Shown here one piece after another: positions 1 to 48,368 of a DNA stretch of 64,000 bases. The notes under the pieces are model-generated. The model ran no database searches, was not told where the DNA came from, and saw nothing but the letters and a program-made list of their open reading frames with translations. Within the stretch, counting starts at the first letter, position 1. The number at the start of each line of letters is the position of its first letter. This DNA is from Nemertoderma westbladi (Eukaryota > Animalia > Xenacoelomorpha). The position numbers and the translations under genes are program-made. The DNA is taken from contig JAUCBJ010007275.1 in the NCBI GenBank assembly GCA_032718475.1, forward strand, positions 35,666-99,665. The letters are read 5' to 3'.

Positions 1-697
1 GGTGAGTAATCTGAGAAGGTAATTGCGGAAGGATTTCGAGGTGGTTGTAACTCAAGTTGAGGGATCGCAATTGGTTCAAATTGCGAATAGAATCTGTTAG
101 ACTGTCAGTTCTTAATAAGTTATAGGAGAGATCAAGATGGGTTAGTTTGGGAGTCAAAAGAAGTGAAGAATCTAGCTGGTCGAATCTGTTATGACTGAGA
201 TGTAGTTCGGTTAACTGGTCCCAATTAGCGGGTGGGGCGCGATCACCACCACACTCACTGAGTAACTCGTAAGTGCTGTGAAGCATCCGGTAACAATCCA
301 AATACTTCAACCGCGAGCGAAGTTGGGTTAAACCAGCCACCAAGTTAATAGGTATTTTATTCAGAATTAGGCAGGTTAGGTTGGGTAAATGATGTAGCCG
401 GATTGGAGCTTGTATGGTGCTAGTGTGATGAACGAGTGACAAACTATCGCATTGAACAAAAGCTGAATGAAGACTGGATAAATGCCGTCTGTAGGCATCA
501 TCGTGAACACGGTGGTGGACAGCGCCAGAGTTTAAGGCATCAAAAGCTTCTCCAATAAACACCAATAACGAGGCTGAAATGTCTAAGTTATGGGGGTTTC
601 CCCTTTTTTCAATTAGAATTGTCAACCATTCTACATACTTGAGCGTGCTAACAGCAGCAACATCAAATTTAAACGGATAGCGATCCAGGGACGACAT
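1..697 (-). CDS. STK11IP: 5' part of an STK11-interacting protein (LIP1)-like leucine-rich-repeat gene; continues beyond the left edge
   Basis: Hand translation from ATG at 697 is open to base 1 (absent from the ORF track): MSSLDRYPF...SLSLVHH..APIRLHHLPNLTCLILNKIP...YELLSECGGDRAPPANWDQLTELHLSHNRFDQLDSSLLLTPKLTHLDLSYN...LRSLNLSYNHLEILPQL. ELLSxCGGD followed by W and LDSSL LRRs matches my recollection of STK11IP. Confidence 0.8.
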   Translation of the reverse strand, partial: MSSLDRYPFKFDVAAVSTLKYVEWLTILIEKRGNPHNLDISASLLVFIGEAFDALNSGAVHHRVHDDAYRRHLSSLHSAFVQCDSLSLVHHTSTIQAPIRLHHLPNLTCLILNKIPINLVAGLTQLRSRLKYLDCYRMLHSTYELLSECGGDRAPPANWDQLTELHLSHNRFDQLDSSLLLTPKLTHLDLSYNLLRTDSLTDSIRNLNQLRSLNLSYNHLEILPQLPSQITH

Positions 698-1790
698 AAT
701 AATATATAAATAAACAAAATAATCAGTGAATTCAGAATTAGTACCGTATAGCAAATTGGTCAAAAGAGACCTGAGAATGACACATGTTTAATGTTTATAA
801 CATAATATTGGTAGGTCACTTAGTCACTTAAGTAACATAGGGTTAAATTGCACACATTCATACTACACTACAGTACTACCTAGGCGTAATCGTAAAGACT
901 GATAAAATATTTACTGTCGATATCTGTATATTCCAAAATGTTACTATTATTACTTAGCCTTGCCTATATATATCATTTACTTACTCCTCGTTGTTTATAG
1001 CTCGTTAGGCCCTATTTTATTACTTTATTAGCTGAACCGGTAGGCCTACTCCCAATACTGCAATAAATCGACTCCCAGATTTACCGATTTACCTTTCCAA
1101 ACAAATTACGTTCTCATTTAAAAATCCAAATGAAACTATTTATTCTTAAATTGTTACTTTTTCGCTATAATATCAAATACACCTCAAAATCGGGAGAAAA
1201 GTGAGTACTTTTTTTCCCTCGGCAAACAAGTAACCCATACGATTGCATTGATCTTACTTTTTCTCCCGGCGAAAAAAGTAAAATAGGAAAATATTAAAGA
1301 TTTCTGGTTTGAATTTCTTAAATTTTATTATTTAGGGCCTAGGCCCCCTATGTGTTGGAAGAGCATCGTCATAGAAAAGGTTTGCGACTTTAGCGTCTGA
1401 CTGCAAGGGGAACTCCAAAACAGTTAAATAGGCTCTCTACTCTACTCTCTAGTAAGTAGCCTAATAAATATTCAAGAAAAATAATTTTTTTAAATCTGAG
1501 TCAGGCAGCATCAGGCTGTCAGGCTCAGGAGTTGAAGAGTACAATCATTGGAATCGCAGTAACTATGGAAGCAATATTTGAATAGGTCTATAGGCTATAG
1601 CAGTATAGTAAAATAGTGCAGTTCAATCTTTTTGCAACACACTTTCATTATATCTTGTATTAAAGAATTATAACAGTCGGGGAGAAGTTCAAATTTCAAC
1701 TGAGTTGAAATTTAAAACTTTTTTTTTTAAATTCAACTTTAAGTTGAAAATTCAACTCTAAAATGGTAGGAGGCCCAGAAGGCCCCTAAG

Positions 1791-11058: not shown

Positions 11059-11584
11059 CAGTATAATAATTGTAGGTCTAACGTCTGAACGTACCGTACA
11101 GCACTTTAACTTGGATTTATTGCAGTATTGCATTAGGCCTTATTGCTTATGGCCTCTTACTTATTCTGATATGGCAGTGATTTTTTTTGTCCTTTTATTT
11201 GACTTTTTTTGTGCATAATGAATGTGCATAACGAATTGTGCATAATGACTTTTGTTGTCCCTTTAATGACTTTTGTTGTCCTTTTAATGACTTTTTATGT
11301 ATGTATTTCTTAAAACTGTCAGACTGCTGATTTCTGGACTGTCAGACAGTTGATTTCAACATGCGTATGCCACAACATTCAAAATTTGCTGATTTCTGGT
11401 CTGTCGGACAGTTGGTTTCACTATGCCTGTGCCAAAACAATCCATGATTCCATGATTCATAGTCTATGAGATAGATTTCCATATGCGCCTGTGGTAAAAG
11501 ACTCTAAAATTTAATAGTTTGTGGTTGTTGTCGATAATCGATTACCACATGATGTAGCAAAACACTCATTTTATAGCCAAAAAC

Positions 11585-12117
11585 AATTACCAATTGATGG
11601 AAAGGAGCAGGTTAAGGCCGGATTTTTTTAACCAAAACAATAAACAGTCACTTTACCAAATGAAGGAAAGGAGCAGGTTACAGAGGCGGGCCTTTCTAAC
11701 CAAAACAATAAACGATCATTTAACTAATTGAGGGAAACGAGCAGGTTACAGAGGCGGGATTTTCTAACCAAAACAATAAACAGTCACTTTACCAAATCAG
11801 GGAAAGGAGCAGGTTACAGAGACGGGATTTTCTATCCAAAACAATAAACGATAACATTACCAATTGAGAGAAAGGAGCAGGTTACAGAGGCGGGATTTCC
11901 TAACCAAAACAATAAACGATCACTTAACTAATTGAGGGAAAGGGGTAGGTTACAGAGGCGGGATTTTCTAACCAAAACAATAAACAGTCACTTTACAAAA
12001 TGAAAGAAATGAGCAGGTTACAGAGGCGGGCCTTTCTAACCAAAACAATAAACGGTCACTTTACCATATCAGGGAAAGGAGCAGGTTAGAGAGGCGGGAT
12101 TTTCTAACCAAAACAAC
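11585..12117 (+). repeat. ~60-bp tandem repeat (about 9 units)
   Basis: Unit GGAAAGGAGCAGGTTACAGAGGCGGGATTTTCTAACCAAAACAATAAAC.... Reverse-complement copies at ~3860-3945 and ~13400-13480. Confidence 0.85.
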
Positions 12118-13024
12118 CGGTCAGCCGGTAGGCCTACCAGTACCGCATTTAAATGGTTGGCTACACAGTAGGCCTACAGCAGTACCGGTGCCGGTACCGG
12201 TACTAAAATACCTAAAATACCTGCTTTATACAGTACAGGCCACCAGAAAACGCAGATTTGTACAATTGTGAACACATTTTATCAAATGTGTACCAGTGTA
12301 ATGTAATGTTGTTGAACGGGACAATTGAACATAATTGAACATAACTGAATTGGCAACAACCAAAATTTTTTCGCCAAAGGATACAATTGAATACTTTTGA
12401 AACGCTTAGTAATCTGGAAACTCTCTGTAGTTTGCCGCTAGCTGTTACTCACTGCAGCTGGAAATGCGATAAGGATATTGTTTACCTTTATAGTGTGCGG
12501 TTAATAGTGTCTAGTAGGCAGGCCTATAGTTAGTGATGTTAAGGCATCTTCTGGTGTTTCTCTGTGCCCTCTCGGTGTCAGACTAATGGCGCGACATCTC
12601 CCTGCACTAAATTAATTATTCAATGGTCTAGGCTCCTCTATCCATATACCCATCCACTCCATGAACATTAACATTGTGCGGTTAGTAGTGTCTATATACA
12701 CTCCATGAACCTCCATGTGGTCTTGTATGTAGTTCTCTCTCTACCAATACAGCCCATGTCCGCAATGTTACGCCCTGGGGGCTCTCTCATCTACCTGATA
12801 TCAGACATACAGTACATTCGCACCACACACAAAGCCTTTGTCGGTCCCAGCAAGTCAGCCTCCTGATGTGTGATCTAGAAGATAACTCGCCATAACCTGC
12901 CAATCAGATGACTTGAACAACAAATGTGTTCACATGTGATCACATTGGATGAAATCTGCTTTTTCTGGTGGCTTGTACTGTACCTACATCTGTACATGCA
13001 ATACTGCAAAATAGTGCTCTATAT

Positions 13025-13617: not shown

Positions 13618-14792
13618 TGTAAAAGCTTTTGCGGATATAATCAGTCCCCTTGCCCGCAAAGTACCGTGTGGGTGTTTTAACGGACATAAAAGTTGTTCTT
13701 CTATATGTGTGCTTTGGAGGACATGGCAAGACACAAAACCCGCAATGCGTCAAATCCTCTAGCACAGTGTAGCCTTGATGATTCAGATTACGACATCTAA
13801 CAGCTGGTTGCTGTCATGGAAACGGCCGTTGGACACATGGTTCTTTGTTCAGCTTAACAGCCAATCAGAGCGATTTTTACTTTAGACGTGGAGATATTCT
13901 ACAGATCGTACTAGGTGTGTTCAGTCTTACAGTGTTAGAGTTTTGTTGTTTCTATCTAGGCCAAGAACACCGGCTCTGGAGTAAAATTGTTTTCAGACTT
14001 TAGAAGAAACATTAGTAGGCTTAGATTATAGAGCGTATAACTGTTATCAGCGGTACAGTCTTACAGTACCAATCATATCATATCTTAACCTACCGTCTTA
14101 ATGCTTTTACTGTTGTCATTATTTGTATCAGTTGGTTGAATATTATTACTTGGAAAACATCGATAAATAACCCAAATTTCCCAATTTTCTTGATACACTA
14201 CAGGTTAGAGAGACAGGTTACATATAGCGATTGCGACTTATATTATCGTGGTTTGTAGTGAATTTAATGCTATTTGATAAGCACTACATGAGTCAATTGC
14301 TGTTCTCTTTATGTATGATAAAATTCATTGACGGTCGGCAGATTAGTGTGCAGTATTGTGCGGTACCGGTAGTGTGCATGATTGTGGCTGATAACTAAGC
14401 ATTTCCTAAAGAATGCGCCTCATACGTGAATCATAAGCCTTCCCGTCTCACCGTTGTGTTTAGTATAAGTCATATCTCTGTTTACCTAGATAGAGCGCCA
14501 CGTCCTAAAGGAACTGTTAATATTTCCCGAAAGTGAATAATATTCGTCAGAAATTATTTATTAACGATCAATCGAATAATACAGTAAGCTTACACTGCAA
14601 TAAAATCTAAGCCCTCCGAATCCAGTCTCCCGGGTAAATCCAGCGGGTGAATGGACGCGCACTAGGCTGGCTTCGGCTAATGTTGTGTTTATTGGTATTA
14701 AATACTTGTCATATGTTAAAGTCTATTTATAAACCAAAAGATATATAAATTTTGGCAGGTTAAACTGCTAAAGGTCTTCAAAAGCGCGTACA
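13618..14792 (+). repeat. Element A 5' LTR
   Basis: Near-identical to 28497-29671 (about a dozen substitutions by eye, ~99%). TG...CA ends. AATAAA at 14599-14604. Confidence 0.97.
13858..14001 (+). promoter_or_regulatory. Putative LTR promoter (CCAAT box plus Inr-like TCAGAC)
   Basis: CAGCCAATCAGAG (CCAAT 13861-13865) and TTTCAGACTTT (~13991) are conserved in the otherwise divergent U3 of element B (34095, ~34227). Confidence 0.45.
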
Positions 14793-14803
14793 ATAACAGT
14801 TAT
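14793..14803 (+). other. Non-tRNA primer-binding site of element A (ATAACAGTTAT), complementary to LTR 14037-14047
   Basis: Directly abuts the LTR-terminal CA. No TGG. Exact reverse complement ATAACTGTTAT lies at 14037-14047 and 28916-28926. Confidence 0.75.
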
Positions 14804-14859
14804 CTTCTTTATTGCAGTAAGCAATAAAGTTGAAAGTACCGGTCGACCGGTAAACCTGA

Positions 14860-15020
14860 ACCGGTACTGCTGTAGGTCCGTAGGCCCAACTGCCAGAAAC
14901 GGTACTGCTGTAGGTCCGTAGGCCCAACTGCTTGAACCGGTACTGCTGTAGGTCCGTAGGCCCAACTGCCAGAATCGGTACTGCTGTAGGTCTGCAGGCC
15001 CAACTGTCCTAACCGGTACT
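14860..15020 (+). repeat. ~38-bp tandem repeat in the element A leader
   Basis: ACCGGTACTGCTGTAGGTCCGTAGGCCCAACTGC repeated about four times; a single related unit in element B. Confidence 0.8.
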
Positions 15021-15204
15021 TCCAGTATAAGTACATTAGTATTATTCGATTTTGATTATTGTATACCGGTAGGTCTTAGTACTTAATCAGGGAACAGCCG
15101 CCCTGGTTTTTTATTGACATTTTACTTATTTCTGTCGGTTTTATTTACATGTAAGTTAATATTGAGCAGAAGACGTGTAAGTCTGCTCAGATTGTTCAGA
15201 TAAT

Positions 15205-15775
15205 TGTAGGCTGGACTGTTGTCGGACTGTTGTTGGGTCTGGAGAGATTGCGGCGTATGTAGAGTCTGTCCGATAAAGTGCCAGTTAGTAAGTTGGGGCA
15301 TCTTGAGTTGTAAGGTCAACCCCCTCCTAAAGAATAAGTCGTACTACCGTGTTAGAACGCATACTAACTAACCATTTTGGAATCTGCATATACTGTAGTT
15401 TATTTAGGCTTGATAGTAGTCTACCAGCATTTTAGCCTGTGTTTGTTTGTGTGGTCTGTTCAGGTACCGTAATAGTTATTACTCAGATATTTTGTAGGCT
15501 GGATTGTTGTCTGGCTGTTGTTGGGTCTGGAGAGATTGCGGCGTGTGTAGAGTCTGTCCGATAAAGTGCCAGTTAGTAAGTTGGGGCATCTTGAGTTGTA
15601 AGGTCAACCCCCTCCTAAAGAATAAGTCGTACTACCGTGTTAGAACGCATACTAACTAACCATTTTGGAATCTGCACATACTGTAGTTTATTTAGGCTTG
15701 ATGGTAGTCTGCCAGCGTTTGGTTTGTATTTTGTTTGAGTATTCTGTACGGGTAGCGTAATATTTATTGTTCAGA
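15205..15775 (+). repeat. ~288-bp tandem duplication in the element A leader
   Basis: GGAGAGATTGCGGCGT...GTAGTCT occurs at 15241 and 15529; single copy in element B (~35345-35620). Confidence 0.85.
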
Positions 15776-17083
15776 GTTTATGCGATTATTCGAAACATTC
15801 ATGTCCCCAAGTTTATTCCTACAGTAATTGTGCTTGTTACACATACCGTTGTAGTTAAATTAACCCCGGTACTACACGGGCTGCTTGGCGTAGGTAAAGA
15901 CTGGTGACTTTGTGCTCCGGTCACTCCAGCAGATGCTGTGGTTCTTTTAACTGTTCAAGTATATTTAACTGCTAGTTATCTGTTTTTAATAAGTACTTGT
16001 ACCTAATTTAGGGTTTGGTGTACAGTGCTTTCCGAGAGTAATTAGTGTGTAGGCAGTGTATTGTGTTGTAAAGTGGTTAATAGGCACGTTGGATCTGGTA
16101 GTCCGCGGTAATTAACTTCCAGGTAGGAACACTCCGTGATACATAACGTAGTACCTATAGCGATACGGCTATAGGTCGTCAGACGGTGGTATTTTTCCTA
16201 TCTGGACAGCGCAACATATTTACTACTACTTATTATTTTCAAATACCATAGTACCCTGTCCGTTGTAATAACCAGAATTCTAACCCTTTGTTAGGCTGGT
16301 TTGTAGACTTCCTGTAAAATTACCCTAAAATTTCGTACGTAATATTTTTGTTGTGTTTAGTTAGAGAATTAATCTCACCCGTATCGTAAGTAATTCGTAG
16401 ATAAGTAACTTAGGAAGTAGAATTATCTGTTTTAGTGTCCAATAAGTAGCACTTCACTGAGAGCGCACAGCTTCTGTGTAGTGATTATTTCCCAGAAATA
16501 GTAACATCTATTTCAATATTGTAACAAAACCCCTCATACGGGTATATATATATATATATATTATATATTATATAATCAACTCAAACGATTTATAAATAGT
16601 AGGCCTGCCATACAACAACTAGGTCTCAATATCAGTTGGACTACTGCTTAAGTAACGGTAATAAAGTAAGTTAAAGTAACCAAGTAACCCTAAAATTTCA
16701 GAAATTCAATTATTCTAAAATAATTGACATACCGGTATTTACCATAGGCTTATTATATTTATTTCTATAAATTTGGGCTGAAATCATACCGGTATTCTGT
16801 AATTAATTCTAGTTCATAATTATACTTATATATACTATAAGTGTAAACTGCATACCGGTATTCACGATAGGCCTATTATATATTTATATATATATTTGTG
16901 CTAAAATTATATACCGGTATTCTGCGACAAACCTAGTCTACAATACTTATATATACTATAAGTGTATACCGGTATTCTAATATACTGTAATAAATTACCG
17001 GTACTAGGCCAACGGTCATACTGAATTACTAGACTTGCTTTAACTGTAACTATAGCAGTAAGCATTCAACTGTATAGCTAAGC

Positions 17084-20000
17084 ATGTCTGACACTAAGCA
17101 AAACCTGTCAGACAGTCTAATCGATACAACCATCTGTGACACAGATAGGAGTGTGGAGCGATTAAGAAAAGGGTTCAGCTCACCTCCTACTGAAAGAAAG
17201 GTCATCCCTCCAGTAGTAGTATCAGACCCTAGGCTAATCCAACACCGTAGGTCTATCATCGGCACTCGGGCCCAGGTCAAATGGAACCAAGAAGCAGCTG
17301 TCCAACAGCAGCAACATCCTAGTCAAGAAACTCGTTCCCAGCGACCCGATAGCTCCAGTAGTTCGGATACTGTAGAGCTGACCCCCGAACGCGGAGTGAA
17401 GATGGCGGATACAGCCTATTCGGATCCCCTTCTCACTCTTCCTGCCGCAGTACTAACTACGATATTGATTGCGGTGGAGGAACACCAAGTCGATTGGGCG
17501 AGAAGTAAGCGAGCGACCCAAGATAGTTATGCGGGATACGCCAGGGAAGAATTGATGTCTATTGTCGAGTCACAATGGAACTTTCCCGGACCCGGATTCC
17601 CGTTAGACTTATCCGAAGCTACCTGGGATGACATACACATGATGGGAGTGACTAGAGATACGATGGATCCAGCTGTTTGGAAGAGGTCGGCAGCAGGATA
17701 TGTGCAGGGATTCTTCGGCTCCTTAGAGCGATTAGAAGAACAACTGTTTCGACAACCCCAAGGACCTCAAGAGCAGGAAGAGCTGCTTTATCAAGTACGC
17801 GAAAGAACCCTACGCATTAGACTAATCCTATCAGCCTTTGAGGAAACTTCCAAAAGAAGACAGGACACGTCGCTGCAAGTTGCTGTCAAGACTTGGTTCC
17901 AGCGGATAGGTCTCAAATTTCAAGAAACGGCCCAGTGGAAATCCCAGCTGGCTGAGCGACCAACCTATGAAGAATCAACCGATGCCACCTTTTCTCAAGT
18001 GGAAAGCGAAGTGACAGCAGAGAGACCGTGAACGAGAGACGCCATCGACATCTATCTGTCAGACTATCAACGTTTTTTAGGTGATGAAGAGTTGAGGAGA
18101 CGACTGGCTGGACTTCGCCCCAATAGTGAAGGAGCCAAGCTTGTGTTGGACTCAATCGATGCGGAAATGTTAGCTGCAAACCAAGCTAAATTTGATGAAA
18201 AACTCCGCCTCGCTAGAGTCCAAGAAGAACAAGTAAAGAAAAAACGTATAGAGGACAGAAAGGCAGTAGCAGCTGCAAAGGCGGCAGCGGCAGTGGAAGA
18301 GGCAAAAGCGGCAGCGGCAGTGGAAGCGGCAAAAGCGACAGCGGCAGCGGCAGTGGAAGCAGCAAAAGCAGCAGCAGCAATGGCATTGGCAGAAGCAGAA
18401 CAGAGAGCGTCTGAAGAGACCACCCAACTGGAGTTGGAAAATCTTCAAGAGACGCAAGACTGCATAAATAAACAGTTAACTGCTAGTCAAATGCAGATGA
18501 TGAGTCGATCTACTCCCAAGCGCCAAGGATACACATCATCGGAGGAAGGCGAGACCACCGATCCTGAAGGCGGAGGAAATAGATCTCGTCTAAGCAGGCG
18601 TAGAAAAACATCTCACCGTCACAAATTGCCTGATTTGCCCCCAGCTGTTAGAAGACAACTAGCTAGCACAGACTTAGGTAGTACAGAACCCACAGACCAA
18701 ATTATTAAGGTCAAAAGACTCCCTACAATAGTAGATGAGCCTGAAATAGTTAAGCCTGTTATCGAAAACACCCCTTCGGTGAGAGAGGCCCCTGTACTTC
18801 CCGAACCTACAACCAAATTCCCTTTACACAGTACGAAACTGTTTGCACCCGGTGGAGCAGTCCCAGAGAATGTCCCGGTTCTTGACGCCGAGAGAGAAAT
18901 CCAAGATTTGTCTCCCGTTGTCCCACGTCGGCTCGCTACTATGTTGGCGACTCCCGCTTCGGCGGTCGAGTGGGTTGATGAGGGACGGCGGGAGATGGGT
19001 CTCTTGCTCGGGCAGCTGAGAGAGCACCGAGAATGCTCCTCACAGCAGATCCGAGATTTAGAAGGGACTGTCCACCAACTCAAGGGAACAGTAAGGGAAA
19101 GTAGGGTAGAATTGCAAGAAGTGCAGCAAAGTATCGCGCTGGAACGCGACAAATTAGTCAATATACAAAAGGGTATACCAATACCCCCTGTAACATTGTG
19201 TCAACCTGTTAGGTCTGAAGTATTACATGCGCAAGGTGTGGAGCCTACACGCATCTATACTGCTAGTGAAGTAGAAACTCCTATAGCAAACCCTATTAAG
19301 GGTGATTATAAACCTGTTGTTAATGATATTCCCTATAGACCTGATAATAATCCGAGAAATTTATATACCGATAATTCGATATTAAATAATACGATGGCCC
19401 AAGAAAGCTTTACGCGTCAGATGGCTAGAACAGAAGCCCGCCAAGCGGTCAAAGTGGGAGAAATCGTCAAATTCAATGGAGATGAGATGAAATGGTTACC
19501 TTTCAATGAATATTACAAAGATGGCATACAGAACTCTGTACTATCTAACGGAGAGAAACTTAGATTCCTCATCAAGTGCTTGGAAGGACCTCCCAAGTTA
19601 ATGGCGTTAAAGTTTATTGGACATCCAGATGGTTTAAGACAAGTTTGGGAGACATTAAACATCAGGTATGGTAACAAGGATAACATAGCGAAGTATTTGT
19701 ATGCAAAATTAGTAGCCCCCCGAAACTTCCTTAGTAGCGGGATTATAGAGTTTTCCGATGAGATTCAGGAGATCTGTAGACAATTGGACTGGTTAGGTAA
19801 GTCTCATGAATATCAGAGTTCCATGGTTATTGGAGCCGTAGTCTCTACTTTACCAAAGGGTGGAGTATGTACACGCTGGGATAAGAAAGTGTTGTATATG
19901 AATGAGCAGCAACGACGAGGCCCTACCATGGCTGATCTCATGTCCTTCTTAGATGGTGAAGTAAAACTACAACTCATAAAGCAGTCCAGAGAGAAAACAT

Positions 20001-23000
20001 CGGAAAATAAGGTAAGTGAGAAACCCGTTTCTAGGAGAAGAGTAACACCAGTGTGTTACACTGACGACGGCGAAAGCCAAGCTTCTCAAGAAGAGGACAG
20101 CGGAAAAGACACTGACAGATTTTACTACGTTAACAAAACCTCAAAAGACGTAAGTAAATACAAGGCTCAAACCAACGATAGGAGAGAACAGGTTGCCAAG
20201 ACTCCTCCTCAGTCTCCTAACAGAATGCACGGAAGAAAGCCCGAAGAAAGAACGAGAGTGCATCACGTTACCCAAGGTAAAGTGAGTAACATCAAACCAA
20301 ACTGTGCGCTGTGCGACGGGCCCCACCGTTTGAGTGCGTGTGCTGAATTCCTAAAGAAATCCCTGGTAGACAGACGTGAAGTCATGTGGGATAAGCGGTT
20401 ATGCTATAATTGCCTCAGACCAGGACACCAACGGCGAAACCTGTTACTCCGACGTAAAGTGTGCAAAGTGCGGTGCGAAACATCACATCTTGTTACACAG
20501 TGAATTCGAACGAAACAACCCGAGTCAGGTAAGTGAGCCCGAACAACATGTCCAATTCAGTGATGTAAATGACACTGATCAAGAGTCTGAGATGGAAGGA
20601 TTCTATACTTACGAATTCTCTGACGCCAACGAATCCTGTTACCTAATAAATACCGCAGTATATCGAGCACTTACTTACGAAAAGGACACCGACAATGAGT
20701 TCCCCCCAACTACCTTTGACAGACAACCATCTTGGAAAGATCCAACTTCCAACGTAGGAATCAGAGAATTTCCTGTAGTGCAGGTAAGAGTTCACGGTCC
20801 TAACAAAAGTTACATAGTGAACGCCCTCCTTGACTCCGGCAGCACAGGAACATTCATCGATCAAGAACTAGCCGAAGATATCTTTGCTGGACAACCCAAA
20901 TTCCAAACTAAGTTGAATATGTCCGGAATTATGCAGGTTTGGAAATCTACCCTAACGGCAGATTACTATGTAGGTGCGTTGTCCACCCCCCAGGATAAAT
21001 TAGGAGCACAAAGTATAAGGTCAGTAAAAATGGTGGCTATAAAGAACTTCGCTACTACCCAAGTAGAACCTTATAACTGGGACGAGGACGAGAGCATCCA
21101 ACAGCTCAAGATACCGCGATTCCAGACAGATTATCCTGGAGTGCAAATACTCATCGGCCAAAACGCGCATGAGGCGCTCGAGACATTGGAGAAACGGCCT
21201 GCTCAACCGCAACCACTACAAACCTATGCGGTAAGAACTAGAGTAGGTTGGTACTTTACTGGCCCTTCCCGCAGAACTCTCAAAGAGAGATTACCACAAG
21301 AAAGAATATACCAAGTAAGTGATTGGGAAGTGGAGAGCAGTGAGGTGGACGAACTAACTAAGGGAATACCATATTCCTCAGATAATGACGACATCTACCA
21401 ACTCTTCGATGAAGAGAACACAATCGACCTACTTACAGAAAACAAAACTTGGAAAAACCAGGTGAACCTATGTCAACTGATTCGCCCATCGGGACCCATT
21501 GATTACAATGACGAACTAAATGATGAGATAGAGCGCTACAACGCTAGAACTCGGGACGAACTCGCCGTACGATTCTTTACTCAAGAATTGGTAGAGCCCA
21601 ATTCATACGATAAGGCCCTATCGATAGAAGAAGAAAGAGCCAAGCAAATCCAGGAAACAACTACACGTTTTTTAAAAGATCAAGGTAGATATGAAATCGG
21701 CCTACCATTTCGAAAACGAGAACCTAGATTTATAAATAACAGACCCTTGGCAGAGAAAAGAATCACTCAATTACATCGACGTCTTACGGCTAATCCTTCA
21801 GCTAAAGAAATGTACCAAACTCAGTTGAAGAAATTTATTACAAAGGGATACGCGGAGCGAGTACCGGAAGGAACACCAGTAACTGAGAGAACGTATTACT
21901 TAACACATCATTACGTTCCCAAACCCGGTAAACCCCATGAAGTACGAGTCGTATTCGATGGCTCCGCTCTATATATGGGCCAATCCCTCAATTCCGAGTT
22001 GTTACCAGGACCCAACTTACTCCAATCTTTGTTGGGAATACTTTTAAGATTAAGACAATATTCCATCGCGTTCGCCTCCGATATAGAAGGAATGTTCTTA
22101 CAAGTCAAGGCGCTGGAGAGAGATAGAGACAGCCTAAGATTTCTGTGGTGGCCTGAAGGAGATCTCAACCAGAAACCGGTAGAGTACTGGATGACCATCC
22201 AGGCTTTTGGGATCATATCAAGCCCTTCCAACGCCTGCTCCGTGGTGCGGACCACTGCGAATGACAACCGAGACGCCTTCTCCAAAGAGGTGATAGACAA
22301 CATCAAGCGCGATATATACATGGACGACAATTTAAAGTCCCTTCCATCAGTAGAAGAAGCCATTGATGTCGCGAAAGGAACGGTAGAGTGTTTGAAAAGA
22401 GGTGGATTTCGACTGACGAAAATCACCAGCAACTCCCGTGAGTTTCTGGAAGCGATACCGGTAGAAGACCGAGGAACGAAAGACCTAGACTTAATAAAGG
22501 ACGATCTTCCAGAAACCAAGACGCTTGGCTTGAAGTGGGACACAGAAAGAGATATCCTGTTTTTTCAGCTAAAACAGCAAGATAATCCAGTTCGGACCAA
22601 ACGGATTTGTTTAAGTATCCTGAGCACTTATTTCGACCCATTGGGATTTATTAGCCCAGTTATATTGATTGCTCGGAGTTTAGTACAACAAATGTGGCTT
22701 GAAAACCACTCATGGGACGATCCACTTAAGGGAGAACTGTTAACGAGGTGGATGAAATGGGAAGATTCTCTACCTGCCATCGAGAGCTTTGTAATTTCCC
22801 GTGCATATTTTGGTCATGTTCTCCCTACGTATTCCTATCAACTCCATGTGTTTGGAGACGCCAGCGACATGGGAATAGGTATAGTAGCATATCTGCGAGT
22901 CGAAACTCCGGATGGAATCAAAGTCGCCTTGGTTACCTCTAAGGCATTGATTAACAACAAGTTAAAGGTTCCTCGAGCGGAGTTAAAAGCGGCTTTATAC

Positions 23001-25169
23001 GCTACAGCCATCGGCCGGAACGTAACAGAACAAATCGACTATCCACTGGAGAAAACTGTTTATTGGACCGACGCTTTACTCGTGTTGGAGTATATAACCA
23101 ATGAAGTCTGTCAGTTCAGCGTTTTTGTTACTAACAGGGTAGCTATTATTCTTAGTCGCACAAAGATAGATCAATGGAGACATTGCCCTGGTACGATTAA
23201 TCCAGCCGATATCGCCTCCAGGGGAGCGACTCCACAGGAACTGATAGATACTCCAGACTGGTTGGGTGGACCTGACTTCCTGAGTAAGGAAGAGGATGAA
23301 TGGCCTCCTCACCTTACTACGGCAGAGATTAGACAAGCCAAGGGAGCGGAGAAAGTCAAACCTAAAACCCGGGCGAGTAAATCGAAGTTATTTAAACCGA
23401 CGATCGATCTATCTGTATTACATACTTCCGGAAACGATGCTTCGGATCCACAATCCCTCGCCACAAATAAGTCTGTTGTGGAAATTAGAGATAGAGATTG
23501 GAAATCTGGAATACCAGACGTCTCGCAAGGAATCTCACCCCTGCTGCAGAGAGCAATGTATCACTACAGTTCCTGGAATCGGCTCTGTAAAGCCGTCACA
23601 TATTTAAGGAGATGTTTTCATCATCACTACTCCAGGACGAAGACCATTAATGATACCGCTCCATTGACATCTGCGCAAGTTCATGTTATTAAAAATTTAC
23701 CCAAATATAAGACATCCGACCGGTTTCTAAAGGAGAAAATCAGTTACCAGGAGCATGAAGAAACCAATAAGCAGATACTGAGACTCCTGCAATGCTATGA
23801 GGATTCCGATAAGTATTTCCTGTTGTTGAGAAATCCGCAGATGCGCTTAAGGGATCGCTTCTCTAGCACAATGATAGATGGGTTAATACGTGGTGGAGGA
23901 AGACTCACCAATGCGCCATTATCCTTTGACACTAAATTCCCCATATTCATTAGAAATCTTGAAGTACAAATCAAGATGATTGTAGATGTTCACAGTAAAC
24001 TTTATCATGCTCGTAGAGAACGAGTTCTTAGCGAAATCCGAACTCGCTATTATTTTTATAAACCCCGTAGAGCTCTGAACCAAGTTCTTAGGAACTGCAT
24101 ACCCTGTAGGAAAGCATTCAGTAGGCCTTTAACACAGCGAGAGGCAGAATTACCTAGGGAACAAGTAAGCTTCTATGAACCACCTTTTACTAATACTGGT
24201 GTAGATTTATTTGGCCCTATTGAAGTATATCGTGCTAGGACTATAGTCAAGAGATGGTGTGTCATCTTCGTATGCATGACTTGTAGAGCCATCCATCTCG
24301 ATATGGTGAACGATCTATCTACCAACAGCTTCGTCTTAAGTTTACGCCGACAGATCGCTCGCTTCGGGACTAGTAATACCATGAGATCGGATAAGGGAAC
24401 GAACTTCATTGGTGCCAACAACGAAATCCAGGCTTACGTGAAGGACTGGAACCAAAGACAGGTGGACGATCAGCTAAGGATAACAGCGTCTAGCTGGACC
24501 TTCAAAGCCGCCGACGCCCCTTGGTGGGGAGGAAGTTGGGAGAGATTAATTAGAAGTGTCAAGACCGCATTTCACTTTATAGTGCCATGCCGCGCGTATC
24601 TCACCGACGAACTTTTGCGGACGTTAATGGAGGAAATAGCTGCCTATCTCAACGAGAGACCGCTTATGCCAGTCTCATCGAGTCCCGATTCCCTGGAAGC
24701 GCTAACACCCGCGCACTTTCTACTGAAGAAACCTGTAGCCATGCTCCCACGATCGGAGATTGCCGACGGAGACGAATACTGCCGTCGAACTTGGCAACTT
24801 ACGCAGTTGCTATCCCGTCGTTTCGCTGACCATTTCGAGAAACATTATCTGCCCACGCTACAACTTCGAACTAAGTGGTTTGCGCAGCAAGAAAACGTCA
24901 GCGCCGGAGATATGGTGCTTATTGTAGATTCAGACCTTCCACGTAAACGGTGGCAGACAGGTCGTATCATCGAGACTCACATCTCGGATGATGGTTTAGT
25001 GCGCTCGGTAGAACTCGTCGTCATGCGGCGTAACTTCAAGAAGCCAGGCATAATCTTTGAGACGCAACAGCTCAACCGCCCAGTTGGTCGTTTATGTTTA
25101 TGGAAAGAGACCGAGAACTCTCCGGAAACTATGGAAGGCAAGACACTCTTCCCACGACCACCTCCCTAA
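17084..25169 (+). pseudogene. Element A gag-pol polyprotein (~2690 aa) with one nonsense codon and one +1 frameshift
   Basis: ORFs 17084-18031 and 18092-20503 are in frame across TGA 18029-18031 (sense codon in B). An extra A near 20437 relative to B shifts the frame. Motifs: DUF1759-like FNGDEMKW, three Zn knuckles, protease LLDSGS, RT YMDD, Pao RNase H FGDAS/PRAEL/YWTD/NPADIASRG, integrase H-H-C-C, GVDLFGP, SDKGTNF, WWGGSWERL. Confidence 0.95.
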
Positions 25170-26825
25170 TTCCTCAAACATCTAGGGACTCCCCAACGTG
25201 ATACGTCTGGAGTGGGTGCATGACTATATTATTCTATCTATTTTTATTATATTTTATATGCGAACGTTATTACAGTATGTACATTATTATAATCGTTTTA
25301 TTTAATTTTATTTAGTAGAATGTTATTTTAGATTATTTAGTAGGTTAGTGCAATATATTAGTGTTTATTACGTAATTACATATAATATATATTTAATATG
25401 ACGGCGAGAAATAATTCTTTCTTTTTCCTTACTGTCCGTATTATATTATAAATACGAGACTACAGTAAGATGACATGTCAGTACTTATTAAAGTACAATA
25501 AAGCTCCTACTATATTTAAGTATTATTGGTAGGCAGAGTATTAGGAATGCAAAGTTCAGATCCTCGTGTCTCGGCTAAACCAAGCTTTGGGTAGACCTTG
25601 GAAACGACTTGCCTCTTCACACTGACATTGCTTCGTGCGATATTGCTCTTCTACTTTATATTAAATAATACATATAGTAGCGTGATGTCCCTATAACAGT
25701 AGCGTAAAACGCAAATAAATCTGTTAAACCTTTTGACCATCTGTAATTTTAGTCGATTAAGATATCGCGGCACCCACCGATATACTTGAAAGACAAATTC
25801 TAGAATCAGTGGTTAACGTCCCCAGACAAGTTCTGGAATAAATCGGTGCCCATCTTAAATATTAATTTAATATTTATTAAAATCTGTAAAATTCAGATCC
25901 TTTAAAATTTCTAGTCAATTAAGATATCGCAGCGCTTACCGATACTCTTAAAAGACAATTTTATAGAATTAAGGATCCTAGGTCCCCAGACATGCTCTGG
26001 AATAAAATTGTGTCAATTTTACCATCAAATAATAAAATTCACGGGAATAAATTTAAATTCATATCTTAAATGAATTTCATAAATTGTCATTTCGTGCAAT
26101 TTATAACATTCCCAAAATTCCAGTAATTAATAGATCATGGGAGCGGAGATTCATCCTATTGAGCGTATTAGAGTGCGAGAATCTCCAACATATAGTCAAT
26201 AGCCGATAAAATTAATAATATCATGCATAAAGAGGATATTGACAATTAAAGAATTACTATTAAATAGCATTCCAGATCTGTATGCATGAGAATTACCCTA
26301 ATTCTACCGCTAGCTTTCCATAATGTCACCATAGCAACACCCACGCTAGAATTAGAAGCAAGTTAAAAGAACAATAGAAAGCTTGTCCCATTGCATAGCA
26401 TAGAGAATACATAGCACATGGTTAGTATCCAAGGATACACAGTAATAACGTGACATTCTGGAAGGCACTGACTAACGGACAAATGGCCTGTATGTGTACA
26501 ATTGGAGACAGTTTTGTGGAATTTGTGCGTTTATAGGTGAATGTTACTGCTAAAGTGTGTTTACAGTAGCTAGTCGCAATTGTGAAAGTAACCCTAACTC
26601 TAATATAGAAAGAACCTAAAGTGGATTCAAGCCTTTGGGACAGACAGTGGAGTGACTTGTGCCGGTTATCGTTGTCGTGCTGTTGCTACATGTTGGCGTA
26701 AACACCGCGACAACGGTACATCGGCGCTGAGAATCCCACTGTCCGGGGGCAAAGAAAGGTAGGCAGCGACGCTCGCTTGCCTAAACATAAACTCATTATA
26801 ATATTAATAAACCCAAATAGCAGAT

Positions 26826-28419
26826 ATGACGGAGTTGATAGAAGATGATCTTGGTATCAGGGAGCGATATACTCTACCTTTACAAGCATTTGTGGATAGC
26901 TTGATACGCGGTGAATCCGATCCAACCATTACGGAGGACGATGGTCGTTATATCGAACCGCCGATGTCCCAAGAGCAACTTACGCGTGAATTGGACTATC
27001 GAAAATTCACCGCTCGCTATACGCATCGTAATGGTATGTATATGGACTTCTTAACTACCGGCCATCTTATCGATTTACATGATACGGACGATGTAGACAC
27101 CGAAAGGGAAATGGTTCTATTTAAATATCATACCCAGCGGAGTCGTAACGATAAACCGAGAATAGTACACGAAAATTCTATTCGTAACAGACTGGAAAGA
27201 GAAAACGTTCAAGAACCGGATAAACGCATCGACTTCAGTGACTACCTGGAATTTTTGAGAGAAACCTATCTCAACATCGCCAGTCAGCAGAACCTAGAGA
27301 CTCGATATCCTCAAGGTATACATCATGACCCTATGGTAGAACTCAAACGGCTCTATTTCACTATGATGTATCTTACCGCCGATCGTCCACTACCTGTTAT
27401 CCCGGATAGTTTTGAACAAATGGAAGAATATTGCAAAACTGGAGAACGATCACCCGCGTTTCCTCTACAGGACGTACGTCTTTGGTATTATTGTGACGAA
27501 TGCCCTAGACCCAACCAACAAACTGAAAGACACAAACGTCCGCTGTTCCTATTTCCACGAACAACCGGCGATGGAAATTTATTGCGCATATTGCAGACTC
27601 CATAACTTGCATATTTTTGCGGTTTGCCCTCAATTTATGACTCAATGTCACCATTGTCAACTAAAGGGACACGCCAGTTTCGATTGCCCTTTTAATCACG
27701 ATTTGGAAAGCGTAGATGAAATGATCACACTACGTTACATCAGAGCTTGGGAAGCGAACGCTGATTTACATTGTGATTTGCGCCATCGCTATTATCCTGG
27801 ACGCGCTTACGAAGGAGTTTATGCGTTCCATCCTTATCTATTCGCTTCTGTCGAACAGAAATCACGCATATCGAGTTACGAACTACTGAAGCGCGTCGGA
27901 GAATGTATTTCAACCAAATTTGTACGCAAATTTCTCAGGAGTGTTAATCCTAGCGACCTTCATTCCTATAACTTAATCAATTTTATCCGTCAGGATCCGG
28001 ACTATGGAGACTTATTTGTTAACTCACACCCCGAGTTACAGGAAGTATATCGACGGCCTTACGAATACCGAGCCCGCGAACGCGAGTTGGAAAGAACCAT
28101 TAAACCCAGGAAGTTTCTGACTGCCTATGGTCCACCCACGGCTCTCGTTCAGACCACTCGTAAAGGACCCGTAAGAGCGGCCGTCCTAAAACGCGCTCTA
28201 AAGGCCGTTAGACCCCTCTCCCCCGACGTTGATGTCAACCAACCCGGCACTTCGACCGGCGGATACACCGACCATAATCCTACACCCTCTGATGCAATCA
28301 TATTGCACCCTTCACCCAGAAGTTATAGCCCTCCTTGTAAAGTGGCTCGCCCCAAAGAGAAAAAGACTCTGGCCAGCTTTAAAAAACTGCGTAAACGCCG
28401 TCCGCGCAAGAAAGACTAA
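26826..28419 (+). pseudogene. Element A ORF3, internally deleted (~2.1 kb lost near 27542)
   Basis: N-terminus matches B 46823-47541 and C-terminus matches B 50541-51389. The central exonuclease region is absent and the join is out of frame. Retains two CCHC knuckles (~27583-27687) and a KKLRKRRPRKKD tail. Confidence 0.85.
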
Positions 28420-28486
28420 CTGTTTAGAGTATTTACGTATATTAGAAACTGTGATTTTGTATATTTATAGACTTGAATCCCATTTT

Positions 28487-28496
28487 CTGGGAGTGG
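28487..28496 (+). other. Polypurine tract of element A
   Basis: CTGGGAGTGG directly before the 3' LTR TGTA; element B has CTGGGAGCGG at 51458-51467. Confidence 0.7.
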
Positions 28497-29671
28497 TGTA
28501 AAAGCTTTTGCGGATATAATCAGTCCCCTTGCCCGCAAAGTACCATGTGGGTGTTTTAACGGACATAAAAGTTGTTCTTCTATATGTGTGCTTTGGAGGA
28601 CATGGCAAGACACAAAACCCGCAATGCGTCAAATCCTCTAGCACAGTGTAGCCTTGATGATTCAGATTACGACATCTAACAGCTGGTTGCTGGCATGGAA
28701 ACGGCCGTTGGACACATGGTTCTTTGTTCAGCTTAACAGCCAATCAGAGCGATTTTTACTTTAGACGTGGAGATATTCTACAGATCGTACTAGGTGTGTT
28801 CAGTCTTACAGTGTTAGAGTTTTGTTGTTTCTATCTAGGCCAAGAACACCGGCTCTGGAGTAAAATTGTTTTCAGACTTTAGAAGAAACATTAGTAGGCT
28901 AAGATTATAGAGCGTATAACTGTTATCAGCGGTACAGTCTTACAGTACCAATCATATCATATCTTAACCTACCGTCTTAATGCTTTTACTGTTGTCATTA
29001 TTTGTATCAGTTGGTTGAATATTATTACTTGGAGAACATCGATAAATAACCCAAATTTCCCAATTTTCTTGATACACTACAGGTTAGAGAGACAGGTTAC
29101 ATATAGCGATTGCGACTTATATTATTGTGGTTTGTAGTGAATTTAATGCTATTTGATAAGCACTACATGAGTCAATTGCTGTTCTCTTTATGTATGATAA
29201 AATTCATTGACGGTCGGCAGATTAGTGTGCAGTATTGTGCGGTACCAGTAGTGTGCATGATTGTGGCTGATAACTAAGCATTTCCTAAAGAATGCGCCTC
29301 ATACGTGAATCATAAGCCTTACCGTCTCACCGTTGTGTTTAGTATAAGTCATATCTCTGTTTACCTAGATAGAGCGCCACGTCCTAAAGGAACTGTTAAT
29401 ATTTCCCGAAAGTGAATAATATTCGTCAGAAATTATTTACTAACGATCAATCGAATAATACAGTAAGCTTACACTGCAATAAAATCTAAGCACTCCGAAT
29501 CCAGTCTCCCGGGTATATCCAGCGGGTGAATGGACGCGCACTAGGCTGGCTTCGGCTAATGTTGTGTTTATTGGTATTAAATACTTGTCATATGTTAAAG
29601 TCTATTTATAAACCAAAAGACATATAAATTTTGGCAGGTTAAACTGCTAAAGGTCTTCAAAAGCGCGTACA
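28497..29671 (+). repeat. Element A 3' LTR
   Basis: Direct repeat of 13618-14792, followed by TSD GATTA. Confidence 0.97.
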
Positions 29672-29684
29672 GATTATGCATTTA

Positions 29685-30165
29685 TTTTGGGCAAAAATGT
29701 TTTTGCTTTGGGGGCAAATGTATTTTTATTTTGGGGGATAATGTATTAGTTTTGGTGGAAAATGTATTTTTTTTGGGCGAAAATGTATTTGTTTTGGGCG
29801 GAAATGTATTTGTTTTGGGGGAAAATGTATTTGTTTTGGGGGAAATTGTATTTGGTTTGGGGGAAAATGTATTTATTTTGGGCGAAAATGTATTTGTTTT
29901 GGGGGGAAATGTATTTGTTTTGGGAAAATTTGTAATTATTTTGGGGGTTTTGTCATTTATTTTGGTGCTAATAATGCTTTGGGGAGCATTTATTTATTTT
30001 GGTATTGAATAATTTGTTTTGGTGTTGAATAATTGTTTTTGGTGTTGACAAATTTGTTTTGGTGTTTGAATAATTTTATTTGGGGTGACTTTTATTTTAT
30101 TTGGTGTGAATAATTTTTTTGGGGTTACATTATTTAATTTAGTGTAAAATAATTTTTTTTGGTGA
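29685..30165 (+). repeat. 21-bp and ~20-bp minisatellites
   Basis: GGGGGAAAATGTATTTGTTTT units followed by GGTGTTGAATAATTTGTTTT-like units. Confidence 0.85.
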
Positions 30166-30213
30166 AATTGTTATCAATTTAGGGATGACTTTAATTGGTA
30201 GCCATTTACATAT

Positions 30214-33907: not shown

Positions 33908-35058
33908 TGTAAAAGCTTTTGCGGACATAACAAGTCATTTTTTCCCGCAATGCACAGTGTAGGTGCTTTAGCGGACATAACAAGTCATTTTTGCCGCAAT
34001 GCGCATAATACTCTAAAAGACTGGAGCTCAGATGACGAAATCTGTCAGCTGATTTCCTGTATACGTGGAACTTTTCTTTGTCCTGCCTAGTCAGCCAATC
34101 AGAGACGATTTTCACTTTATGTTGAACAGGGGCCTATGGAAAACCGCGCAATGCATTACGGTCTTTGTTTACTTTTCTGAGCCAGAGAACCGGCTTGGAA
34201 ATCTTCTGAACTTCTGATTTTGGAAGTTTCAGACTTTTGGCCTAAACATCTGATGGCTTTGATTACAAGAACGTAAATCTATTGTCTGGAAACATTACCT
34301 GGCTGCATTTACCTGATGAACTCAACATCCTGCATACATACTGACTTACGTAACACATACTGATTGTTCACCGCATTATTTTACTTCTGTTATTAATTGT
34401 TGTTATATGGATATATATTGCTGATATATTTGGATAATACCGATGAATAATCATAAAACCCCCAATCTTCTTGATTACTGAAGGTGAGAGGAACAGGTTA
34501 CCGGTAGCAACTGCGACTTAAATTATAGTGGTTTTGTGTGAATTAAATGCTATTTCATAATCCCTACAAGTGTCAGTTGCGATCTTCCTTATATATGATC
34601 AAATTCAGTGACGGTCGGCAGATCAGTGTGCAGTAGTGTGAAATAGTGTGAAGTCGTGTGAAGTAGTGTAACAGATAATAAAGCATCTCCTAAAGAATGC
34701 GCTATTTACGAAACTCAGTAGCCATCTAGTTGTAATTAGTATAAGTCATAACTCTGTTTTTATACTTAAAGCGCCACGTACTAAAGGAACTGTTAATATT
34801 TCCCCGAAAGTAAATATATTTGTCAGAGATTATATAGTAACGATCAATCGAATAATACATATAGGTCTGCACAGCAATAACTTTCAAAGCACCCGAATCC
34901 AGTCTCCCTTAACTGTGGGTGAATGATCGCGCACAGACTGGCTTCGGCGGATGTAACTTCAGTACATTAAATAATTGGTCTAGGCTAAAGTCGATTTACA
35001 AACAAGAAGACAACTAAAATTGGCAGGTTAAACTGCTAGAGGTCTAAAAGCGCGAACA
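33908..35058 (+). repeat. Element B 5' LTR
   Basis: TGTAAAAGC...CGCGAACA; about 98% identical to the 3' LTR by eye. Confidence 0.93.
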
Positions 35059-35069
35059 ATAATAGATTT
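35059..35069 (+). other. Non-tRNA primer-binding site of element B (ATAATAGATTT), complementary to LTR 34275-34285
   Basis: Pairs 11/11 (one G:U) with AAATCTATTGT at 34275-34285 and 51834-51844. Confidence 0.75.
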
Positions 35070-36948
35070 TTAAGTTCTTTATTGCACCATAGGCAATAAA
35101 GTCGAATGTACCGGTCGAACGGTAAGCTGTAAGCCTAACTGCCCAACTACCCGAACCGGTACTTACTGGTACCAGTATTATTTCGATTGTGACATATTGT
35201 ATATTGTAGGCTGTTAGGGGATTAGGGATTGATCACCCCTTATTCCTTTGTATGGTTTACTTATTTCTGTCAGTATTATTTATCTGTAAGTGTAATATTG
35301 AGCAGAAGGCGTGTAAGCCTGCTCAGATTGTATAAATAATTTGTAGGCCGGATTGTTGTCTGACTGTTGTTAGGTCCGAAGAGATTGCAGTATGTGTAGA
35401 GTGTCTGTCCGATAAAGTGCTAGTTAGGAAGGTGGGGGCATCCAGTGTTGTAAGGTAAATCCCCCCGAAAGAATAAGTCGTACTACTCGGTTAGAACGCC
35501 TACTAACTAACCATTTTGGAGTCTGCATATACTGTAGTTTATTTAGGCTTGACAGTAGTCTGCCAGCATTTGGTCTGTATTTTGTTTGTATAGTCTGCAC
35601 GGGTAGCGTAATATTTATTGTTCAGAGTATATGCGAGTATTCGCAACCTACAACCCCCCAAGTTTATTCCTACAGTAATTGTGCTTGTTATACATACCGT
35701 TATAGTTAAATTAACCCCGGTACTACATCAGGGCTGCTTGGCGTAGGTAAAGACTGGTGATTTTGTGCTCCGGTCACTCCAGCAGATACCGTGGTTCTTT
35801 TGGCTGTTCAAGTATATTTAACTGCTGGTTATTTGTTGTATAAGTACTTGTACCTAATTTAGGATTTAGAGTATAGTGCTTTCCGAAAGTAATTTTGTGT
35901 GTAGGCAGTATATTTGTGTTGTAAAGTGGTTAATAGGCATGTTAGCTCTGGTTGGCTGCGGTAATTAACTTCTAGGTAAGGACACTCCGGGTACATAACA
36001 TAGTACTTATAGAGCTAAGACTATAAGTCGTCAGACGGTGGTATTTTCTTATCTGGACAACGCAATTTACTTACTACTGCTTTATTGTTTTCAAATACCG
36101 TAGTATCCTGACAGTTTGTAAGAACCAGAAATTCTAACTCCTTGTTAGGCTGGTTTGTAGATTTCTTGTAAAATTACCCTAAAATTTGTATGTATAACTT
36201 TTTAGTGTTAATTTAGAGATTGTAATCTCAAACTGTAATAGTAAGTAATTTGTAGTGATAAGTAACTTAGTAAAGTAGAATTATTCGTTTTAGTGTCCAA
36301 CAAGTAGCACTTCACTGAGAGCGTTCAGCTTCTGTGCAGTGACTCCTCACCCAGAAATAATAACATTTATTTCAAACATAGTCCAACCCCTTGTACGGGT
36401 ATATATATATATTATAAATAAACTCAAACCGATTTATAAAATAGTAGGCCTGTTATACATCTATTAGGTCTTAATATCAGTTGGACTACTGCTTGATAAC
36501 AGTAATAAGTAAAGGGAAGTAACCCTAAAAATTCGGAAATTCAGTTATTATAAAATAATTGACATTACCGGTATTTACGGTAGGCTTATTATATATTTAT
36601 ATAAATTTGGGCTGAAATTATATACCGGTATTCTGTGACTAATCCTAGTCTATAATAATACTTATATATACTATAGGTGTATACCGGTATTTACGGTAGG
36701 CTTATTATATATATTTATATAAATTTAGGCTGAAATTATATACCGGTATTCTGTGACTAATCCTAGTCTATAATAATTCTTATATATATATACTATAAGT
36801 ATACCAGTATTTTAATATATTATATATATATCACGTTACACTGAGTAACGATATCGGTAATTAATTACTAGGCTTACAGTTGATACTGATTTACTAGACT
36901 TACTTTAACTGTCGTTATAGTAGTAGGCATTCAACTGCAATATAAATC

Positions 36949-47802: not shown

Positions 47803-48368
47803 TTTTCTAACAGTGAACTATAATTTTGTTAACCAAAATAACAAAAAAAAAATACCGGTATACTCTAGCCTATACTATACTATATTATAATCATAACCAA
47901 CCTGTAACAGTAAAATGACAGCAAGTGTGACAAGTTGTTCTATGAAATTCGATCTTGAAGCTGGTGATGTATACCTTCAAGCGGCAAATATAGTCGATAT
48001 TAGTAGGTCAGTCAGTCAGTTAGTCAGTATCGATAAATCTCTCTCATTACCGGTACCATTTATAAATTGGTTGCTGTTGCGGTTCCGGTTGCTGTTGTGG
48101 TTGTGAATGTGTCACAACAACATCATTATCATCATCTTCCCATGGGTTGTTTGCGGGTAACATTGGATTTGTTATACCATCCTCCCAATTTTCTTGAGAA
48201 ATTATACCGGTATCGCATGTATGAATTTCGCTATCGCCGCCCCGGGTTGAATTCTCACATTTAATGTGAAATTTTTCATTGTTTTAAAATCCGTTATTTC
48301 GTTTCCTCTTTTATTTTTAATTGCCATATGGAAATTTTATATGGAATTTGCCATCTTCAAGTTTCATA
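47803..48368. other. Foreign ~566-bp insert in element B ORF3, flanked by a diverged ~150-bp duplication
   Basis: The KPMIRVPEY...DLVLP coding block occurs at 47650-47802 and again at 48369-48522, around unrelated AT-rich DNA. Confidence 0.75.

Follow-up and report, generated by a model that had tools for sequence, protein, structure and literature searches.

Complementarity between the LTR and the primer-binding site in two BEL/Pao retrotransposons, a probable basis for self-priming

Two related LTR elements, A and B, lie within the 64-kb window (the whole stretch of DNA that was analysed), and in both of them an 11-mer inside the LTR pairs with the 11 nt that directly follow the 5' LTR. The position of this pairing and its covariation between the two elements suggest that A and B quite probably prime reverse transcription with their own LTR 11-mer instead of a tRNA, in the manner of Tf1.

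Anatomy of elements A and B and the LTR–PBS pairing

On their protein domains and architecture, A and B are assigned to the BEL/Pao superfamily. Pfam matches to DUF1759, Peptidase_A17, and DUF5641 had E values of 2.7e-12, 7.9e-36, and 1.6e-19, respectively. The best 120 relatives listed for A Pol were BEL/Pao polyproteins with 35 to 42% identity, and PF05380 was present in 120 of 120 among the matches listed; among the named ones, corals, molluscs, echinoderms, and further marine invertebrates predominate, and the host is therefore probably a marine invertebrate as well. The catalytic motifs of A pol were picked by eye in the translation, and with the identities that we take these motifs to have, the order is protease, RT, RNase H, and integrase. 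The coding frames of B are more fragmented than those of A. Internal regions of the two elements are about 84% identical across 10.5 kb, and their LTRs are identical at 763 of 1084 positions. A 5-bp target duplication (GATTA) is present on both outer flanks of A, and the 5' LTR end of B was set by homology to A because the end of its 3' LTR is altered. The features are listed in Table 1.

Table 1 Positions of the features of elements A and B within the window
Feature	Position	Strand	Description
Element A	13618-29671	+	16.05 kb; both LTRs TG...CA
5' LTR of A	13618-14792	+	1175 bp, TG...CA; 99.06% identity to 28497-29671
CCAAT box	13861-13865 (B 34095-34099)	+	Conserved block 13857-13870, 13/14 identical in A and B
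TCAGAC	13993-13998 (B 34229-34234)	+	Conserved; Inr-like or acceptor-like; 43-44 nt upstream of the 11-mer
Possible second helix, 5' strand	14028-14033	+	Pairs with 14807-14812 (B 34267-34272 with 35074-35079)
Candidate self-primer of A	14037-14047	+	11/11 complement of 14793-14803; 3' LTR copy 28916-28926
Hypervariable stretch	14052-14071	+	Just 3' of the primer
Predicted U5 hairpin	14750-14773 (B 35021-35038)	+	Upstream of the PBS, by folding
Primer-binding site of A	14793-14803	+	First 11 nt after the LTR; no TGG
Leader hairpin, 9 bp	14807-14829 (B 35077-35101)	+	After the PBS; stem identical in B, loop differs
gag region of A	17078-20503	+	DUF1759; broken by one in-frame stop and one frame change
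pol frame of A	20370-25169	+	Open; Peptidase_A17, Integrase_H2C2, DUF5641
Purine-rich tract, PPT candidate	28489-28496 (B 51460-51467)	+	Short, directly 5' of the 3' LTR
3' LTR of A	28497-29671	+	Repeat match to the 5' LTR
Element B	33908 to about 52634	+	About 18.7 kb
5' LTR of B	33908-35058	+	1151 bp; 97.4% identity to 51470-52620
Candidate self-primer of B	34275-34285	+	Pairs with 35059-35069; 3' LTR copy at 51834
Primer-binding site of B	35059-35069	+	First 11 nt after the LTR; no TGG
3' LTR of B	51468-52634	+	Both ends altered; GTACA on both outer flanks

The leader of A (14793-17077, about 2.3 kb) holds no frame of 100 codons, and it contains short repeats 3' of the PBS hairpin and a 288-bp duplication at 15196-15775. 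Extra frames between pol and the 3' LTR (26811-28419 in A and 50379-51389 in B) carry a CCHC-knuckle-like motif and a basic tail; a Pfam search gave no match for them, and the leads from an Atlas search were all below 0.9. About 3 kb of B (47543-50540) is missing from A; this segment includes a 625-codon frame at 48265-50142, with no Pfam match, and a 146-bp copy of pol sequence lies at 50123-50268. Downstream of the primer, homologous LTR sites carry a donor-like GT at 14205 (A) and 34486 (B), a possible splice donor, and ATTAAA at 14698 (A) and 34967 (B), a possible poly(A) signal. The CCAAT motif is presumably a U3 promoter element. Elsewhere in the window there are a host exon-like frame with leucine-rich repeats (2-787, minus strand), a 68-bp tandem array (11551-12184), a 21-bp tandem array (29670-30200), into whose edge A is inserted, and a Gypsy-type RNase H and integrase fragment of 698 codons (61460-64000) between two 165-bp repeats that are 92% alike.

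The LTR–PBS pairing starts from the first base after the LTR and consists of 11 of 11 Watson–Crick pairs in A, and of 10 Watson–Crick pairs and one G-U in B (9 if the G-U is not counted). The two LTR sites are homologues by LTR alignment, and each 11-mer is present in both LTR copies of its element. All of this agrees with a preliminary description of this DNA, which had also held that neither element has a TGG-type PBS; no TGG is present near the 5' LTR end of A or B, the first being at +312 and +109, respectively. A shuffled LTR of the same composition yielded such a complementary site anywhere in 23 of 20,000 cases for A and 137 of 20,000 for B. Both fall within the range used for Tf1-like self-priming, namely, an LTR complement of at least 10 nt that starts 0 to 5 nt after the 5' LTR: A with 11 Watson–Crick pairs at offset 0, and B with 11 pairs if its single G-U is counted. 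Without such anchoring, complements are common: a scan gave 601 matches of 10 to 11 bp in 199,454 positions, with no enrichment after CA.

Between A and B, four differences in the LTR and three in the PBS stand opposite each other, so that three pairs swap and the fourth becomes G-U, as had been described. When the differences were placed at random, all pairs were kept with at most one G-U in 260 of 2,000,000 trials, and in 1,189 with any number of G-U, for a covariation that is drawn from two copies of the family. The 11-mers of A and B are 7/11 identical, which is about the LTR average, yet the pairing is kept. The A 11-mer is a near-palindrome and also matches its PBS as a direct repeat at 10 of 11 positions, so it is B, with a direct identity of only 4/11, that carries the proof of inverted orientation. 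No third covarying allele of at least 25% was found in either 11-mer among the contigs of two public runs (40 of 46 variant rows). The duplexes (−10.1 kcal/mol in A and −8.0 kcal/mol in B) are AU-rich and no stronger than control windows, of which 1 in 50 in A also reached a score of 11. The signal lies in position and covariation, not in energy, and the pairing, its location at the LTR end, the covariation, and the lack of a TGG are direct observations in both elements. The swaps had been read as compensatory selection; the pattern itself stands, but a primer copied into the PBS in each cycle would look the same.

Three other readings of the site were rejected. A self-dimer of the PBS through the palindrome of A fails because the palindrome is not kept in B, a local hairpin masking the primer was no better than shuffles, and the best splice-junction matches for A and B use weak donors inside or away from the 11-mer and are not conserved between the two.

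Primer-binding sites and phylogeny of the relatives

A Pol was aligned with 31 relatives, and 101 loci were fetched. The 5' LTR end could be fixed in 17 loci (16 families), with the help of a sister locus where the repeat of the locus did not give it; L048 and L066, with unclear LTR ends, were left out of the complement tests. An initial inspection led to a new LTR end for L030 and to a wider range of offsets, up to 4. Three of the 16 families (L021, L049, and L094) have a TGG within 5 nt of the LTR end, and a self-complement above controls was absent in all three. By contrast, 12 of the 13 non-TGG families have a self-complement, which is contiguous in two and spans a predicted junction in ten (one with a mismatch). 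The earlier proposal of tRNA-independent self-priming thus gains support from sequence comparison, and over a wider range than claimed. The contiguous 11/11 complements are those of L046 (offset 3) and L060 (offset 0). In the junction type, the PBS pairs with the exon–exon junction of a predicted GT-AG intron in the LTR, which has strong splice signals; clean matches of 10 to 15 pairs were found in nine families (L008, L012, L024, L030, L033, L038/L043, L082, L083, and L089), and the match with one mismatch, in L084, was judged by eye. L100 has neither a TGG nor an assigned self-complement.

A junction scan anchored on ACA or TATA, which covered the 83 of 101 loci with enough upstream DNA, found a match in 31/83 loci versus 0/83 on the reverse strand, some of the 31 being doubtful; positions away from known LTR ends are among the matches at L054, L088, L089, and L038/L043. 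Seven other anchor pairs on the same strand gave 3 to 14 matches in 83, many of them in the same loci. A contiguous scan without a fixed LTR end was no better than the null (16/83 versus 15/83), and L028, L042, and L047 were therefore left uncounted. Recurrent TGG 9-mers, sought in order to class more loci as tRNA-type, gave only coding or same-family matches.

In every classified case the helix begins 0 to 4 nt from the LTR end. Among the 28 helices compared, the modal length is 11 (17/28), and many different PBS sequences occur, each fitting its own LTR. L082 and L083 swap two pairs, the exon end being CAC or TAA and the PBS GTG or TTA, within a block that is otherwise conserved. For A and B, the evidence from relatives is an analogy at about 40% protein identity; on this analogy, the two elements have in contiguous form what in most classified relatives extends over a predicted LTR splice junction. 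Two side observations concern these loci. The LTRs of L030, L033, and L046 end in TATA, not CA, and their PBS helix begins 2 to 4 nt later. L080 to L101 are BEL/Pao elements on 22 contigs that are filed under prokaryote genomes, one of them a Wolbachia chromosome; they are probably host DNA in bins.

Trees were built on RT–RNase H segments (FastTree with 97 rows, seven loci with short segments being left out, and IQ-TREE with 35 rows). A supported branch (96/95) has all three TGG rows on the same side, together with four unclassified rows. A and B form a long branch (1.23) that falls outside the main self-complementary group, close to L008 and to the TGG side. The contiguous forms require three changes in 200 of 200 bootstrap trees, and one of them, L060, sits within the junction types. 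A third BEL/Pao element in the window (56400-61300, minus strand), decayed and distant, has a long branch and clusters with the TGG side. These unrooted trees are compatible with a single origin of self-complementarity. An origin independent of Tf1, as had been proposed, is plausible; self-priming has also been predicted outside Gypsy, in the Copia TAR lineage (available text of PMC6317226), and the step to BEL/Pao is accordingly smaller than the first reading supposed. Hairpin priming has been proposed as ancestral (available text of PMC3601003). One history that we put forward tentatively is that a large marine-invertebrate branch of BEL/Pao swapped tRNA priming for self-priming. Its main form would be a primer built by host splicing of an LTR intron, with only the spliced 5' end starting replication and the unspliced 3' copy passing the intron on, and A and B, as well as L046 and L060, would belong to separate lineages with a contiguous primer, probably after intron loss.

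Proposed priming cycle and alternative explanations

The start, cut, and extension proposed here are modelled on Tf1. Transcription of A would begin at 14037 or up to about 15 nt before it, and the RNA would fold so that 14037-14047 lies on 14793-14803 over a 745-nt loop. The RNase H of the element would cleave after 14047, and RT would extend the primer through U5 and R to 14048, giving about 745 nt of minus strand, which would then transfer to R in the 3' LTR. During later plus-strand synthesis the primer would be copied, and the PBS would be re-templated from the LTR in every cycle, so that both strands would drift together. The 11-mer drifts but stays paired and the stem of the neighbouring hairpin is invariant, a combination that fits templated copying of the primer. 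Just 3' of the primer, the hypervariable stretch accounts for 13 of the 40 variant rows listed from two public runs, and for all 11 rows with an indel, every one of them supported by one or two contigs, and A and B are identical at 23 of 53 positions across 14048-14100. In the junction-type relatives, the primer would end just 3' of the predicted junction. A predicted LTR intron that is spliced from the 5' RNA could persist in both LTRs only if copying of this RNA ended at that point.

Local folding leaves the PBS unpaired, with the predicted U5 and leader hairpins flanking it on both sides (z −3.9 in A and −1.4 in B). Partition-function folds of the whole leader with the start at the 11-mer gave the 11-bp duplex at 0.99 in A and 0.16 in B, and with the start 6 to 15 nt upstream at 0.77 to 0.91 and 0.63 to 0.82, respectively. 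The preliminary description had pointed to TCAGAC as the transcript start, with a primer that is internal, unlike that of Tf1. The motif is indeed conserved, but the duplex vanishes in both elements with a start 43 nt or more upstream (0.00 at 43 nt, versus 0.6 to 0.8 in both elements at 6 to 15 nt), which disfavours this start, although equilibrium folds of 800 to 900 nt are weak evidence. What survives is that the primer may not coincide exactly with the first 11 nt of the transcript. The helix had also been said to end at exactly 11 bp, which holds for the contiguous part; both elements could form a second helix of 6 bp on the far side of a small internal loop, predicted at up to 0.88 in B and at 0.00 in A, in which the leader hairpin competes with it. 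In the comparison of 28 elements, the mean score for a further short helix, beyond a small loop on the 5' side of the primer helix, was 4.49 versus 3.08 ± 0.25 (0 of 5000 permutations), in a test that includes related elements and uses coordinates from our own matches. This suggests that the RNA likely extends a few bases past the primer helix, and the primer of A and B may carry a short 5' extension.

Among the alternatives, the best placed, although unlikely, is that the duplex is structural, serving packaging, dimerisation, or a translation switch, while something else nearby primes. Retroviruses have long-range leader pairings, which provide a precedent, and the lengthening of the pairing by the second helix across elements is structure-like. 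However, the helix lies 0 to 4 nt from the LTR end and replaces the TGG rather than joining it, the 11-mer drifts freely while the adjoining true structural stem is invariant, and the intron kept in both LTRs of the junction types appears to fit best with a copying stop at the junction.

A primer acting in trans, with a solo LTR or another copy donating a short LTR-derived RNA and with no intramolecular fold, is slightly less likely again. The family is highly repeated (25,052 contigs on 3 kb in one public run), and in the folds the cis duplex, which bridges 745 nt, is weak and depends on where the RNA starts. A shared pool would, however, need no match between a PBS and its own LTR, and such a match is kept by each of A, B, L082, and L083; moreover, Tf1 is described as folding its own RNA (available text of PMC7175516).

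Priming by a host RNA, such as an internal tRNA fragment or another small RNA, with a secondary role for the LTR complement, is very improbable, even though half-tRNA priming is known in Copia lineages (available text of PMC6317226) and the ICTV gives the family as tRNA-primed (PMC8742986). A and B differ at 3 of 11 PBS positions, the varied PBS sequences of the 28 helices each match their own LTR, and no TGG occurs within 100 nt of the LTR end in A or B; neither a tRNA gene (ARAGORN) nor a credible Rfam match was found in the region. Chance, whether through AT-richness or through a near-palindrome that was duplicated locally, would suit the near-palindromic A 11-mer and the abundance of unanchored 10- to 11-bp complements, but it is largely refuted and scarcely credible, as B is inverted only, the sites are homologous, the covariation has a probability of about 1e-4, and the relatives show the same pattern again.

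Comparison with known priming systems

Priming from their own LTR would place A and B beside Tf1/Tf2 of Schizosaccharomyces pombe, Tj1, Tf1/sushi, and Tcn1, which likewise have an 11-nt PBS facing their own LTR and no tRNA site. The modal helix length of the BEL/Pao relatives is the same as that of Tf1, and the PBS start ATAAC is shared with Tf1, probably by coincidence. Tf1 reportedly requires an accessory U5 stem-loop near the PBS. The Tf1/sushi group has a Ty3/gypsy chromovirus Pol, whereas A and B have BEL/Pao domains and no chromodomain match. A differs from Tf1 in its 745-nt loop within a 1.2-kb LTR, the primer of A and B may have a short 5' extension and not be exactly the first 11 nt, and most classified relatives of A and B form the primer across a predicted splice junction. 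Moreover, self-priming is established by experiment for Tf1, whereas for A and B it is predicted from sequence. According to the available text of the sources, the Tf1 PBS of 11 nt is complementary to its own LTR RNA and RNase H cuts between bases 11 and 12 (PMC7175516), the PBS starts with ATAAC and about half of Tf1 cDNA retains a PBS copy at its 3' end (PMC11042837), and self-priming is predicted for Tj1, sushi, and Tcn1, all Ty3/gypsy (PMC4600332 and PMC7175516).

Cer7 of Caenorhabditis elegans, a BEL-type element, reportedly codes for a tRNA-like RNA whose CCA end would fit a TGG site. Like A and B it would supply its own primer, although as a tRNA-like RNA and not as an LTR–PBS fold. In the TAR lineage of plant Ty1/copia (Houba and Osr-1), an LTR complement of at least 10 bp starts 0 to 5 bp after the LTR (available text of PMC6317226); self-priming is predicted there from sequence, as in A and B, but these are Copia elements of plants. 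Self-priming has thus already been proposed in two superfamilies, and BEL/Pao would be the third. Among the matches listed in searches of openly available papers, no case of self-priming in BEL/Pao was found. In the available text of PMC554778, PMC8220671, PMC2774666, PMC3118150, and PMC6238403, term searches turned up nothing about how BEL/Pao is primed, and that of PMC5443660, PMC6934838, and PMC3391268 does not name BEL/Pao self-priming.

If the self-priming reading is true, all three integrase-bearing LTR superfamilies have self-priming, and the ICTV statement on host tRNA does not hold for a large share of Belpaoviridae. Such elements would evade control by tRNA supply and 3' tRNA fragments, and annotation tools based on the PBS would systematically overlook them. 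With the junction form in relatives, reverse transcription would depend on host splicing from its very first step, and the RNA ends that this form sharply predicts are checkable in public transcriptomes of hosts with genomes. The two-copy case is modest alone, but it is part of a broad and testable pattern.

In the ICTV profile, Belpaoviridae use tRNA-Arg or tRNA-Gly as primer on a PBS of 18 nt and have a genome of 4.2 to 10 kb and LTRs of 0.2 to 1.2 kb (PMC8742986). A and B share with the family its specific Gag and Pol domains, the order PR-RT-RH-IN, TG...CA LTRs, and a 5-bp target duplication. Their LTRs of 1.15 to 1.18 kb fit the profile, whereas their totals of 16.05 and about 18.7 kb exceed it; they also depart from it in the 2.3-kb leader and the extra 3' frames and in having no 18-nt tRNA PBS. 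Taken together, A and B are BEL/Pao elements by protein that deviate from the ICTV description in PBS and size and most likely work like Tf1.
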